From the NCBI RefSeq assembly GCF_046105845.1, contig NZ_CP151004.1: a stretch of DNA of 64,000 nt. One strand, written 5' to 3'. A program made the position numbers and the translations under genes. Origin of the DNA: Escherichia coli. Its GTDB lineage: Bacteria > Pseudomonadota > Gammaproteobacteria > Enterobacterales > Enterobacteriaceae. Of the stretch, positions 17,317-62,254 are shown piece after piece (positions within the stretch are counted from its first letter, which is position 1; each line of letters starts with the position of its first letter). The notes below the pieces were generated by a model. The model was not told the origin of the DNA. It searched no databases and was given only the letters and a program-made list of their open reading frames with translations.

Positions 17317-17518
17317 CGAAATAATCTGGCAGTTATAAACGTTTATTTTTTTACTGTTTGTGATCTGCTTTCCGAACTTATTAAAAAGTCTCCCGCTTCA
17401 CGGAGGCTTTTGTTATTGTCCTTTGTGCTTCTCGTCAGTAAATCATCAGGGATGATGTGAAGATTAAATGTAAAACAATTGTTTTGCTATAACAATAAAT
17501 TAACTGGGAGGTTTTATC

Positions 17519-18433: not shown

Positions 18434-18534
18434 AGTAAATGCCCCAAAAAAAGAGGACGGTTTAAATAAACTCTGCAATGAATAATTAACGTTATTTACC
18501 TGTTATGGGAAAAGTGAAATCAGCTCATAACATA

Positions 18535-18790
18535 CGCTGACAGGTGTGGCACATTTGTGCCTGGGAAGAGGGTGAAAATCCCTCGCAGCCCCCGCTGCTG
18601 TAATGCTGACAAACCCGAAAATGCCACTGATCGCGAGATTGGGAAGGTCGGGAGAGGATGACGCTAAGCCAGAAGACCAGCCAGTCAGTCAATACCAACA
18701 ACTTCGGTGGGAAGTGGGTTGCCCGGAAGCGTCCGGTAGAGTACCGGCGCGTCTTTATACCCCTACCACCCTGAAAGGATCAGGGTATGG
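18535..18790 (+). promoter_or_regulatory. Cobalamin (AdoCbl) riboswitch, leader of the former cbi operon
   Basis: Conserved aptamer core ggtgtggc...gcctgggaagagggtgaaaatccctcgcagcccccgctgctgtaatg...gccactg and B12-box-like taagccagaagaccagcc at 18666-18683; downstream stem accctga/tcagggt can sequester the aagga ribosome-binding site before the ATG at 18787. Confidence 0.8.
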
Positions 18791-32351: not shown

Positions 32352-32427
32352 TGGCTCCTCTGACTGGACTCGAACCAGTGACATACGGATTAACAGTCCG
32401 CCGTTCTACCGACTGAACTACAGAGGA
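32352..32427 (-). tRNA. asnV: tRNA-Asn (anticodon GUU)
   Basis: Reverse complement is the 76-nt E. coli tRNA-Asn TCCTCTGTAGTTCAGTCGGTAGAACGGCGGACTGTTAATCCG...GAGGAGCCA. Confidence 0.95.
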
Positions 32428-34759: not shown

Positions 34760-34835
34760 TGGCTCCTCTGACTGGACTCGAACCAGTGACATACGGATTA
34801 ACAGTCCGCCGTTCTACCGACTGAACTACAGAGGA
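34760..34835 (-). tRNA. asnU: tRNA-Asn (anticodon GUU)
   Basis: Identical 76-nt tRNA-Asn sequence on the minus strand. Confidence 0.95.
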
Positions 34836-36583: not shown

Positions 36584-36659
36584 TCCTCTGTAGTTCAGTC
36601 GGTAGAACGGCGGACTGTTAATCCGTATGTCACTGGTTCGAGTCCAGTCAGAGGAGCCA
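36584..36659 (+). tRNA. asnW: tRNA-Asn (anticodon GUU)
   Basis: Plus-strand copy of the same 76-nt tRNA-Asn sequence. Confidence 0.95.
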
Positions 36660-51907: not shown

Positions 51908-51983
51908 TGGCTCCTCTGACTGGACTCGAACCAGTGACATACGGATTAACAGTCCGCCGTTCTACCGACTGAACTACAGAGGA
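51908..51983 (-). tRNA. asnT: tRNA-Asn (anticodon GUU)
   Basis: Fourth copy of the same 76-nt tRNA-Asn sequence, minus strand, between yeeJ and mtfA. Confidence 0.95.
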
Positions 51984-52974: not shown

Positions 52975-53064
52975 GGAGAGATGCCGGAGCGGCTGAACGG
53001 ACCGGTCTCGAAAACCGGAGTAGGGGCAACTCTACCGGGGGTTCAAATCCCCCTCTCTCCGCCA
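52975..53064 (+). tRNA. serU: tRNA-Ser (anticodon CGA), long variable arm
   Basis: GGAGAGATGCCGGAGCGGCTGAACGGACCGGTCTCGAAAACCGG...CCCCCTCTCTCCGCCA: class II tRNA with CGA anticodon and encoded CCA. Confidence 0.9.
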
Positions 53065-59071: not shown

Positions 59072-59923
59072 TTAACCCGCGTAAGCTGCCAGCATTTCCT
59101 GCGCCGCCAGTTTACCCAACGCATTCGCTGCGAAAGGACTGTCGCCGGTGAGAACTTTACGGTCCTTATGTACTCGCCCGGTGATGTCGTCATTAATGAT
59201 GTTCATGCCCATTTTCTTCAGCTCTTCGCCGAAGTACCAGGTGAGATGACCCGGCATATAGCCTATCTCTGGCGTTTGTTTGTCTGCGGCGTCTGGGAAT
59301 GCGCAAATGGAATAACCATTCAGTGGGTTATCGCCGTGGCGAAGCGCCAGAAATGCCGCCGGGCCGTGGCAAAGGGAGATAACAAAACGGTCATTTTTGA
59401 TTGCCCACTGTAAAGCGGCAGCCACGTCCTGGCTTTCTGGTAAACCAATAAGTGCGCCATGACCACCAGGAACAAAGATTGCTGCATATTCGCTGTCAGC
59501 GTTGAGGCTGGCGACAACATCCGCGAGTTTCTTCGGATTGCGGAACAACGATTTATGCTGCTCAAAGAATGGCATTACTTTTTCATCTTTGTGTGGCATA
59601 GCCCAGTATTCAAACTTGGTCATCAGACCGGAAATGGTCGCCACTTCGAATTCGAAACCTGCAGCATGGAGATGATACAACGGCAGCAACGTTTCAATCG
59701 GATGGTTACCGGTCGAGAACAGTTTCCCGTTATCGGTCGGCAAATAACGTTCGTCCGCGGCGATCACCAGAATTTTATGTTTACCGCGATACGGTTTTGG
59801 ATAGTCCACGCCATCAAGATCAGAGACAGGACTGGTATATTGGCTAAGCGAATATTCTGAAGGGAAGAATGCATTATCTTCAGCAATATCGACCTGCGGA
59901 TTTTTACTTGTTTGAACAGTCAT
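59072..59923 (-). CDS. hchA: HchA (Hsp31) glyoxalase/chaperone, DJ-1/PfpI family
   Basis: 283 aa beginning MTVQTSKNPQVDIAEDNAFFPSEYSLSQYTSP. Confidence 0.92.
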   Translation of the reverse strand: MTVQTSKNPQVDIAEDNAFFPSEYSLSQYTSPVSDLDGVDYPKPYRGKHKILVIAADERYLPTDNGKLFSTGNHPIETLLPLYHLHAAGFEFEVATISGLMTKFEYWAMPHKDEKVMPFFEQHKSLFRNPKKLADVVASLNADSEYAAIFVPGGHGALIGLPESQDVAAALQWAIKNDRFVISLCHGPAAFLALRHGDNPLNGYSICAFPDAADKQTPEIGYMPGHLTWYFGEELKKMGMNIINDDITGRVHKDRKVLTGDSPFAANALGKLAAQEMLAAYAG

Positions 59924-60432
59924 AGTGTATTCCTTATTGTTGCTTAGTTAGGGTAGTCACTATATTTGCGACTGAGCTGGTCGCTATTTTTAACCAGTCT
60001 GGAAAATTGAGTCAATATATCGAAAGCGGTAGTCGGCGGGTGTAAGTATGTAATGATGATGCTGCACTGGTGTTGAATATTATTCACGCCAAATTTTCCT
60101 TATTGAACAACGTCGTCGCAAGTGGCCTCAATGATTTTAGACCATTATCAGAGGTCCGGGGCGGCAGGGAGAGATTTAGTGCTGTGGAATATTGTGGTGC
60201 TGATGAATATTTATATCGCGGATTGGTAGAGAAAAAGCTTTTTTCATGCACTATTTTTGCAAATATTCCTATATGGACGGCGGTTTTGTTGCGGATTAAT
60301 TCATAAAGAAATGCATTTGGGTGTTGGCTGGAAGAGACGCTGGTAGATTTTATTGAGCCAGGGGGGCGGGGTAAGGTGCTGTATCGATATGCTTTGGCAA
60401 TTGCGTGTGCCGCAGATGGAGATGAAATGCCA

Positions 60433-60471
60433 ATAAAAAAGCCTGAGTTCGATGAGGGACGAACTCAGGCT
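60433..60471 (-). terminator. Rho-independent terminator downstream of the porin gene
   Basis: Minus-strand hairpin (cctgagttcg / cgaactcagg) followed by a T-run. Confidence 0.7.
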
Positions 60472-60513
60472 GGTGTTAAGTTTTACAGTAACACGCCGCG
60501 GCGCGTTGGCTGA

Positions 60514-61707
60514 TTAGAACTGGTAGACTAAGCCCACAGCAACGATATCATCGGTAGCGATGCCGTTAGCTTCGTAGAAGTCGTCGTCGTTGTCCAGCAG
60601 GTTGATTTTGTAATCAACATAGGTGGACATATTTTTGTTGAAGTAGTAGGTCGCACCGACTTCAACGTATTTAACCAGATCTTTATTGGTGTAACGCGGA
60701 TCGCCATTACCGTCATGAGCCCAACCGCCTAAATCCTTCCCTTTAGATTGCAGGTAAGCGATGGACGGGCGCAGGCCGAAGTCGAACTGATACTGAGCAA
60801 CAACTTCAAAGTTTTGGGTTTTGTTCGCAATACCACCTCTGTCAATGTCGTTATTGTCTTTTCCGCTGCCATATGCAGTCATATTACGTGTTTCTGCATA
60901 CATTGCCGCTAAATAGACATTATTCGCATCATATTTAGCACCGACTGTCCATGCTTCAGCTGTTTCACCACCAGCATATTTATTCGAGCGTTGCTCACCT
61001 AAACCAGTAGCACGTTGGTTATCAGTACGGTCAGAGTTTGAATATGCAGCCCCGAGGCTTAACCCGAAGTCAAAGTCATAGGAAGTGGACATACCGAAAC
61101 CGTCACCATTTTCTTTAGACAGTTTACGATTATTACCATTACCAGAACCTTCTTGATCCCAAAGCCCACCCGATCCTTCATTATTACCCTGATATTGCAG
61201 AGCAAAGTTCAGGCCATCGACCTGACCAAAGAAGCCATTGTTACGGTAGGTTGCAACACCATTAGCACGACCGTTCAGGAAGTTGTCGGCACCAGCATAG
61301 GTATCGCCACCAAATTCTGGCAGCATATCGGTCCATGCTTCGATGTCATATACGACACCGTAGTTACGACCATAGTCGAAAGTACCATTCTGACCAAAGC
61401 CTAAACCTGCAAATGCCAGACGCGTTGCGGTATTACCTTTGTCGCTTTCAGGACCGTTTGCGCCAATGTTAAATTCCCACTGACCATAACCAGTGAATTG
61501 GTCAGCGATCTGAGTTTCACCTTTGAAACCGATACGGGCATATGACATGTCGCCATCGCTGCCAGCATCATCAGAGAAGTAGTGCAGGCCCGCTACTTTT
61601 CCGTACAAATCCAGTTTATTACCATCTTTATTATAGACTTCAGCCGCATTTGCTGCGCCAGCAACTAATAACGCCGGGACCAGCATTGCCAGAACTTTTC
61701 TTTTCAT
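60514..61707 (-). CDS. yedS: YedS, OmpC/OmpF-family general porin, intact
   Basis: Start placed at [21 protein letters not shown] (porin-type signal peptide); ends with the C-terminal LVYQF beta-barrel signature. Confidence 0.85.
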
Positions 61708-61965
61708 TATGTATTCCCTTGTGATTATAATCTTCATGAATATATCAATAAGTGCCGTTATCCAAAAAAAAGCACATTTGGATACTATTCTATGAAGTTC
61801 ATTTTATTTTAAAGATTACATGTAACAAATGTATTTAAAAGATTTCAAAATGTTTCTAATCTATTTAATATAATTCAAAATTATGAATTCTAAATATAAA
61901 TATTCATGAAAATTATAAATGTATATCAATATGTTATGAGTTGAGCGGAAACATAGGAGGTATCA

Positions 61966-62055
61966 ATGATTGTTGCGCCAAACGGCTGGTGTGATCACGC
62001 GCACATTAATGAAGACATAAAAAAAGCCGGCATCATGCCGGCCCAAAAAATATAA
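61966..62055 (+). CDS. Candidate 29-codon small ORF with strong Shine-Dalgarno
   Basis: aggagg at 61955-61960, 5-nt spacer, ATG at 61966; encodes MIVAPNGWCDHAHINEDIKKAGIMPAQKI; contains hairpin gccggcatcatgccggc at 62027-62043. Confidence 0.3.
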   Translation: MIVAPNGWCDHAHINEDIKKAGIMPAQKI

Positions 62056-62254
62056 ACAAGACGATAAAAGGCTAATAACGGAGGCATCATGACACAGAAT
62101 AATAAAAAGGTATAATTGTAATCAGTGCTAATATATTGATTGAATGAATTAATAAAGCCGATATCAAAGATAAATAAAATCGCTCAAAACGATTTATCCT
62201 GTACTCACTGCCGTTGCGCAAAAATTATCTATTTGTTCAAAAAATGATTGAGTC

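Follow-up and report, generated by a model that had tools for sequence, protein, structure and literature searches.

Organization of the yedS locus

The stretch of Escherichia coli DNA analysed here (contig NZ_CP151004.1, assembly GCF_046105845.1; 64,000 nucleotides, hereafter the window) contains the porin gene yedS at 60514..61707 on the minus strand. The coding sequence consists of 397 codons followed by TAA, and it specifies a general porin precursor of the OmpS1 type. No internal stop codon or frameshift was found in this frame in the six-frame list of open reading frames or in the alignment to K-12 yedS, and the encoded protein is identical to RefSeq WP_000824406.1. The frame remains open in the 5' direction up to a second ATG at 61737, which would give 407 residues. 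The ATG at 61707 is preferred as the start because a Shine-Dalgarno sequence, AAGGGA (61715..61720, minus strand; also kept in K-12), stands 7 nt before it, because a canonical signal peptide follows, and because this start and its Shine-Dalgarno sequence are kept in Salmonella, where the upstream ATG reads ATA.

The first 21 residues (61645..61707, minus strand) form, by alignment to OmpC, a Sec signal peptide with an AXA cleavage site and a predicted cut between ANA and AE. The mature N-terminus, AEVYNK, matches that of OmpC in the alignment. The signal peptide is identical in all nine translated yedS alleles, including representatives of four deeply diverged types described below. At the other end, the protein terminates in GLVYQF, with the aromatic residue of a C-terminal beta-signal. 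Beyond the stop codon by 43 nt, the terminator scan placed an intrinsic terminator (60430..60471, minus strand) with a 12-bp stem containing 7 GC pairs, an 8-nt loop and a T-run; the stem lies at 60471..60440 and is followed by TTTTTATTGG. This region is 93-100% identical among the seven loci compared.

On one flank, yedS is neighboured by hchA (59072-59923, minus strand). Directly upstream lies the small RNA gene rseX (62019..62108, minus strand; Rfam RF01401, 99 bits against a gathering score of 50), for which the terminator scan gave a terminator of its own at 62044..62024 on the minus strand. The interval between the rseX terminator and the yedS start (61708..62018, minus strand, 311 bp) is AT-rich and presumably holds the promoter, the leader and an H-NS target; its GC content is 26.7%, and that of positions 61700-61899 is 21%, compared to 47% for the window. 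The gene order as a whole is hprRS-hchA-yedS-rseX-drpB-yedJ-dcm-vsr and is the same in K-12 MG1655, drpB being another name of yedR. The first-pass annotation of this DNA had described a full-length 397-residue porin with a signal peptide, a terminal aromatic residue, its own terminator and an AT-rich upstream region, and all of these features were recovered in the present analysis.

Protein family, fold and pore residues

The Pfam profile PF00267 (Porin_1) is matched over its entire length (1-337 of 337) with an E value of 2.3e-143; with the full profile covered at such an E value, the match is not a product of chance. Of the NCBIfam models, the 'porin OmpC' model, which is of the subfamily and not the equivalog kind, is exceeded at 543.8 bits against a cut-off of 484, and the equivalog models for OmpF and PhoE score under their cut-offs. 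The best match among solved structures is Klebsiella OmpK37 (6v78, E 4e-147), followed by OmpK36, OmpC, PhoE and OmpF. Compared to the K-12 paralogues (proteins taken from NC_000913.3), the YedS of the window is about 71% identical to OmpN (70.6-71.4%), about 66% to OmpC (66.2-66.5%), 62-63% to OmpF and about 62% to PhoE.

An AF2 model calculated from a 16-sequence alignment displays 16 long strands, with moderate confidence (pLDDT 64, pTM 0.66) and with loops L3-L5 at pLDDT below 50. In a Foldseek search with this model, OmpK37 ranked first (TM 0.75/0.83), followed by OmpK36, OmpC and OmpF, at a probability of 1.00 and TM values of 0.70-0.85. The model and the search together indicate a 16-stranded beta-barrel, within the moderate confidence of the model. 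All six constriction residues, K16, R37, R74, R124, D105 and E109 in OmpC numbering, are identical in the alignment, and the loop-3 motif LPEFGGD is present. In the OmpC and OmpF structures, the eyelet consists of the PEFGGD loop 3, with D105 and E109 facing the basic cluster K16/R37/R74/R124. YedS is thus shown to be a member of the general porin family with conserved pore residues. The surplus of length over OmpC falls in L4, L5, L6 and L7, which in the model would be extracellular segments between strands.

Relationship to OmpS1 and to other porins

A Salmonella record annotated as 'ompS1: porin OmpS1' shows the genes ompS1-rseX-drpB-yedJ-dcm-vsr in this order; rseX lies on the strand of ompS1, at a distance of about 300 nt upstream. 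Accordingly, the adjacency of the porin gene to rseX-drpB(yedR)-yedJ-dcm-vsr is seen in the window, from open reading frames and Rfam, as well as in K-12 and in Salmonella. The identity between the YedS of the window and Salmonella OmpS1 is 79.7%, the highest of all comparisons. Because the neighbours are the same and this identity is greater than that to any E. coli paralogue, the gene of the window is yedS, the positional orthologue of Salmonella ompS1; the two names have also been equated previously (PMC2731931). The likeness extends to the tandem arrangement with rseX, to a nearly equal length (397 residues in YedS, 398 in OmpS1), and to the start with its Shine-Dalgarno sequence and an upstream block with an OmpR motif. 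The other flank differs: hchA adjoins yedS there, and the Salmonella record shows genes of cold-shock and umuDC-like type. In addition, loops L1, L4, L5, L6 and L7 of the two proteins are unlike in both sequence and length.

The earlier description of the protein as OmpC-like therefore stands as far as a porin is meant, but not as to its closest kin, which is OmpS1, followed by OmpN and OmpK37, with OmpC at only 66%. The same source had counted it as a third general porin, which does not hold since K-12 already encodes OmpF, OmpC, PhoE and OmpN at other loci. Among the paralogues OmpN is the nearest to YedS, and among solved structures OmpK37 is the nearest. OmpN and OmpK37 are quiescent OmpC-like porins with L4-L7 loops shorter than those of YedS, and ompN occupies a different locus. 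Like yedS, ompN adjoins a small RNA gene, micC, whose RNA modulates OmpC (PMC5745476); these two genes point away from each other, in contrast to the tandem of rseX and yedS. OmpC, OmpF and PhoE share with YedS the Pfam family, the type of signal peptide, the PEFGGD eyelet, the basic cluster and the YQF end. They differ in locus and in sequence (62-66% identity), and the YedS precursor is longer by 30-46 residues.

Upstream control region

The region upstream of yedS is 95-100% identical among the alleles compared, and alignment of E. coli and Salmonella shows a conserved block of about 85 nt within it. Inside this block lies a candidate OmpR-binding region (61814..61856, minus strand), composed of four GAAACA/GTTACA-like units in 10-bp phase. 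A TGTWACAW motif occurs at 61820-61828 on both strands; in the whole window this motif is not more frequent than expected by chance (4 found, 9.7 expected). In S. Typhi, an OmpR ChIP peak upstream of ompS1 has been reported to cover two copies of TGTWACAW (PMC3586657). A candidate sigma-70 promoter, TTGTTA-16 nt-TAAAAT (61801..61828, minus strand), agrees with the consensus at 9 of 12 positions, would produce a leader about 90 nt long, and overlaps the block of TGTWACAW and phased repeats. Sigma-70-like sites are not enriched in the AT-rich region (8 found, 5.6 expected from shuffles). Because they lie inside the block conserved in Salmonella, the promoter and the OmpR motif are retained as candidates, and the evidence for the promoter is weak.

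Further upstream, just 3' of the rseX terminator, there is a CRP-like palindrome, TGTGATCACGCGCACA (61990..62005, not assigned to a strand). Its K-12 equivalent, TGTGAtcaggcGCACA at coordinate 2033766, appears with yedS in an entry of a published site table (PMC12871828). On account of their TGTGA...TCACA form we take the sites in the passage concerned, which does not name the protein, to be CRP footprints.

In Salmonella, ompS1 is repressed by H-NS and StpA and derepressed by LeuO (PMC4264507), and its expression is OmpR-dependent (PMC4264507; PMC3586657). The neighbouring rseX is silenced by H-NS and StpA, being undetectable in wild-type K-12 and visible in hns mutants (PMC8313858). By analogy with ompS1 and rseX, expression of yedS is probably silenced as well.

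Four porin types at one locus

The nine translated alleles fall into four groups, and mature proteins of different groups are 59-73% identical, so that most of the distances between types are about those among OmpC, OmpF, PhoE and OmpN. Type A comprises the alleles of the window, CB7286, RIVM_C037166 and 20-20 (392-404 residues), and the K-12 and O157:H7 genes match it at the DNA level. Type B is represented by STEC1585 (387 residues), type C by JNE112863 and 1438 (357-371 residues), and type D by 23CRST030 and SCU-122 (352 residues). When counted among 5,426 genomes at a cover of at least 80% of the DNA of the mature domain, type A was found in 1661 genomes (31%), type B in 366 (7%), type C in 1729 (32%) and type D in 1144 (21%). 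The four counts total 4900, and 4895 genomes match the locus at all. The allele of the window itself is a minor one, matched by 39 records when at least 99% identity is required and by 101 when the limit is set to 95%.

In a sliding comparison with 60-nt windows, the flanks, namely hchA, the spacer, the terminator, the leader, rseX and drpB, are 87-100% identical and mostly 95-100%. The divergence is sharply limited to about 60509-61640, the part coding for the mature protein, and within type A it is found in five loop-coding patches. Synonymous divergence (dS) amounts to 0.28-0.54 within type A. Type A and type B alleles are separated by a saturated dS of about 2.2, a higher value than the 1.7 calculated against Salmonella ompS1. 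In the searchable part of the literature mentioning yedS, no description of these four types was found; the yedS-yedR intergenic region has been used as a marker of host source (PMC11267920).

A bolder reading of this pattern, which we consider speculative and rather doubtful, is that the locus is a bounded site of exchange among four ancient porin types and forms, together with RseX, a silenced 'porin-swap' module. RseX has been reported to repress OmpC and OmpA. Derepression of such a module would replace the major porins with one specific to the strain, and frequency-dependent selection exerted by phages, colicins or antibodies might maintain the types.

Intact alleles, disrupted alleles and selective constraint

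Two independent MG1655 records list the yedS gene of K-12 (b4496) as a pseudogene. Alignment places two disabling differences in this gene, an amber codon at Q162 (CAG to TAG) and a 1-nt deletion of a T at codon 222. The statement of the first-pass annotation that yedS is interrupted in K-12 is thus correct, and both lesions are absent from the gene of the window. As a result of the lesions, the K-12 gene is split into three fragments. Its coding sequence is 90% identical to that of the window, with the differences concentrated in loop-coding patches. The locus and its neighbours are as in the window, with 93-100% identity over the 5' region, the signal peptide and the terminator.

Intact full-length forms of 395-397 residues are abundant. 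One 395-residue form is present on at least 1000 contigs, and a 397-residue form at 99% identity on 106. In strain WP8-S17-ESBL-12 the coding sequence differs from that of the window by one synonymous base and the protein is again WP_000824406.1. This strain, which has the closest yedS allele, is not collinear with the window overall, and a yersiniabactin island is present there. Among 20 alleles inspected, 14 are intact, a proportion that comes from a non-random sample and does not represent a population frequency. Disruptions of several kinds make up the remainder. The K-12 frameshift is shared by the wild duck isolate SF10, which does not have the amber codon. Another 1-nt deletion, at nt 606, is common to O157:H7 TT12A and cattle strain 123. 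An insertion of the IS3 family interrupts the gene in PEC411, and an IS2 insertion that in JS316. At least 4 independent inactivations therefore occurred in the 20-allele sample. Because the locus has been lost repeatedly in other lineages, yedS is dispensable in many settings. The intact gene is nevertheless the common state in E. coli and a feature that was known already, with this exact protein present in RefSeq.

Between the gene of the window and other intact type A alleles, dN/dS (Nei-Gojobori) is 0.06-0.22 overall. Restricted to the modelled strands, the ratio is 0.03-0.10, while the surface loops give values as high as 0.38, and the comparison to Salmonella ompS1 yields 0.09. These values show that yedS is under purifying selection, with relaxed or diversifying pressure on the exposed loops. 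The low ratios, lowest of all in the strands, argue that the protein has been kept functional. Together with the retention of all six constriction residues, the overall ratio of 0.06-0.22 suggests that the YedS of the window is probably a working general porin when expressed.

Alternatively, the open frame may be a cryptic relic that is never usefully expressed, drifts toward a pseudogene and has no present function. The repeated inactivations are in agreement with such a fate, as is the absence of detectable expression of the neighbouring rseX in wild-type K-12 (PMC8313858), and antibodies to YedS were detected in only 1 of 141 healthy people (PMC11242715). Against it stand the dN/dS ratios given above, which were obtained at dS values of up to 0.5, and the conservation of the constriction residues, the signal peptide and the beta-signal. 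Moreover, Salmonella ompS1 mutants are attenuated in mice (PMC4264507), and, as far as can be gathered from citing papers (PMC4048246; PMC11267920), a clinical isolate was reported to possess a functional YedS. A relic is therefore improbable, and an intact porin under constraint remains the preferred reading.

Proposed function and origin

The features of the locus are best explained, with a high degree of likelihood, if yedS is an intact allele of the ompS1 orthologue whose product is an exported general porin, silenced until derepressed, that provides an alternative route of solute entry. The precursor would be exported by the Sec pathway and lose its signal peptide by a cut behind ANA, and its C-terminal YQF would direct insertion into the outer membrane. 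The product would be a general-diffusion barrel of 16 strands, presumably assembled as a trimer, with an OmpC-like eyelet in which D105 and E109 of the PEFGGD loop 3 stand opposite K16, R37, R74 and R124, and with surface loops L4-L7 predicted to be longer than those of OmpC. Under laboratory conditions the gene may be largely silenced by H-NS and StpA at the upstream region of 27% GC, and it could be turned on through OmpR and LeuO-type antagonists, as is the case for ompS1. Once made, YedS would offer an additional route for small hydrophilic solutes, including beta-lactams, as well as a strain-specific surface structure.

The lambdoid porins Lc and NmpC provide a model for a different origin, in which the gene would be a horizontally acquired porin borne by a phage or another mobile element. 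The AT-rich upstream region, which by analogy may be silenced by H-NS, and the extreme divergence of alleles (dS from 0.3 to more than 2) could be read in this direction, and a possible Salmonella origin of the region has been remarked upon (PMC8313858). In the window, however, no phage or transposon genes adjoin yedS, nearly all E. coli carry identical flanks, and the gene order on the rseX-drpB-dcm side is shared with Salmonella. Such an acquisition is consequently very unlikely. The E. coli genome collection contains 32-33 places labelled as plasmid; the plasmid-labelled records that were inspected or are listed by size proved to be chromosome-sized (4.9 Mb 'plasmids') or fragments bearing chromosomal genes; plasmid mobility of yedS was rejected on these grounds. 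That the gene is the ompC of the strain, as the PGAP label 'ompC: porin OmpC' at this locus in many genomes and the score above the cut-off of the NCBIfam OmpC model might imply, deserves even less credence and is refuted by position, since the true ompC adjoins micF and rcsD while this gene lies between hchA and rseX-drpB, the identity to K-12 OmpC is only 66% and not nearly complete, and the model is of the subfamily kind.

As to the silenced ompS1-type porin favoured here, a connection with antibiotic permeability is of most practical interest. In the work of Warner et al. (2013), a clinical isolate without OmpF and OmpC reportedly expressed a translatable yedS, and the level of YedS is said to depend on MicF through MarA. 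Duplex calculations with MicF nt 1-40 and the yedS region from -70 to +45 did not support direct pairing at the yedS start (-12.6 kcal/mol, z +0.36 relative to shuffles), and the positive control ompF was clearly recovered (-27.4 kcal/mol, z -4.5). Direct control by MicF is not claimed here because the yedS duplex is no better than shuffled sequences. This calculated result is at odds with, or at least leaves unexplained, the MicF dependence mentioned above. When full-length RseX was used in place of MicF, not even ompC, a known target of RseX, stood out (z -0.6), so the method carries no information on a pairing of RseX with yedS.

In papers citing Warner et al. (2013), a mode of carbapenem resistance is summarized as inactive marR together with active yedS (PMC4048246; PMC11267920). 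The carbapenem-resistant clinical E. coli of that work is described in these summaries as having an intact, translatable yedS with a proposed role in carbapenem entry, and the yedS of the window is likewise an intact gene in a strain other than K-12. The effect on antibiotic permeability that had been proposed for this gene in the first-pass annotation matches what these citing papers convey; a role as a phage receptor, suggested in the same place, is a plausible conjecture. As the gene, its K-12 lesions, the Salmonella counterpart and the carbapenem link are already in the literature, the intact gene adds little as a discovery, and the four-type structure together with the recurrent loss would be the more useful lead for studies of porin evolution and of phage or immune pressure; apart from the allele types, only the pairing of the locus with rseX might merit more study. 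For this strain, yedS represents a further potential path by which small hydrophilic antibiotics could cross the outer membrane, as well as a further surface protein of variable sequence. Its relevance would arise on loss of ompF and ompC during drug selection or on relief of silencing by H-NS.

Porin types at the yedS locus

As seen in the alignment of translated alleles, the single E. coli locus yedS, which encodes an OmpS1-type porin, holds four deeply diverged porin types (A-D) that share 59-73% protein identity. Comparison with other E. coli loci (L004, L009 and L013-L017) indicates that the divergence between types spans window 60509-61640, the mature-protein part of the gene, and that its boundaries are sharp. 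The promoter, the leader, the signal peptide and the terminator are near-identical across the types. Synonymous divergence is 0.28-0.54 among alleles of type A, the type of the window allele, and is saturated, at about 2.2, in comparisons of type A to type B. Types A to D occur in 1661, 366, 1729 and 1144, respectively, of 5,426 complete genomes.

Additionally, searches of the E. coli genome collection with the yedS locus returned 32-33 matching places on plasmid-labelled records. In a search of PLSDB, the best plasmid-labelled records were either 4.9 Mb in size or bore chromosomal genes, which suggests that they are mislabelled pieces of chromosome.

Inactivation of yedS

Across the compared strains, yedS was lost repeatedly, in independent events. 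K-12 (L004) and the wild duck isolate SF10 (L022) have in common the loss of one nucleotide at codon 222. K-12 carries an additional amber codon at codon 162, which is not present in SF10 despite the same allele. In the O157:H7 lineage, represented by TT12A and strain 123 (L021 and L010), the gene is disrupted by a 1-nt deletion differing from that of K-12. Insertions of an IS3-family element and of IS2 were found in the yedS genes of PEC411 (L012) and JS316 (L018), respectively.

Upstream region of yedS

The small RNA gene rseX (window 62019-62108) immediately precedes yedS, and both genes are on the minus strand. The tandem of rseX and a porin gene also exists in Salmonella, where rseX lies upstream of ompS1, and the position of rseX beside yedS parallels those of micF beside ompC and micC beside ompN. 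Repression of ompC and ompA by RseX is reported in PMC8313858. The sequence at window 61990-62005 is a CRP-like palindrome, TGTGATCACGCGCACA, which lies 14 nt beyond the 3' end of rseX and precedes the start of yedS by about 285 nt. Its K-12 counterpart appears with yedS in a site table of PMC12871828, which is read here, from the form of the sites, as a table of CRP footprints.

Other regions of the window

Four identical tRNA-Asn genes (32352-32427, 34760-34835, 36584-36659 and 51908-51983) and one tRNA-Ser(CGA) gene (52975-53064) are present in the window. At the corresponding place, the strain whose yedS allele is most similar to that of the window carries the yersiniabactin island. Judged by their 15-kb spacing, the third and fourth tRNA-Asn genes of the window would leave no space for a complete island.

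Window 8000-32000 holds propanediol-utilisation (pdu) genes, PTS genes and cobT. Coverage of this stretch reaches 80% or more in only 146 of the 5,426 complete E. coli genomes, and among complete RefSeq E. coli genomes none matched its 24 kb at 99% identity or more, the best reaching 98.5%. Unlike this stretch, the yedS allele of the window is 99.9% identical to alleles of a few strains. Two RNA features were also found here: a cobalamin riboswitch at 18525-18699 on the plus strand, a strong match of 109 bits, and the enterobacterial small RNA STnc230 at 17375-17458 on the minus strand, with an Rfam score of 74.8 bits against a gathering score of 50.
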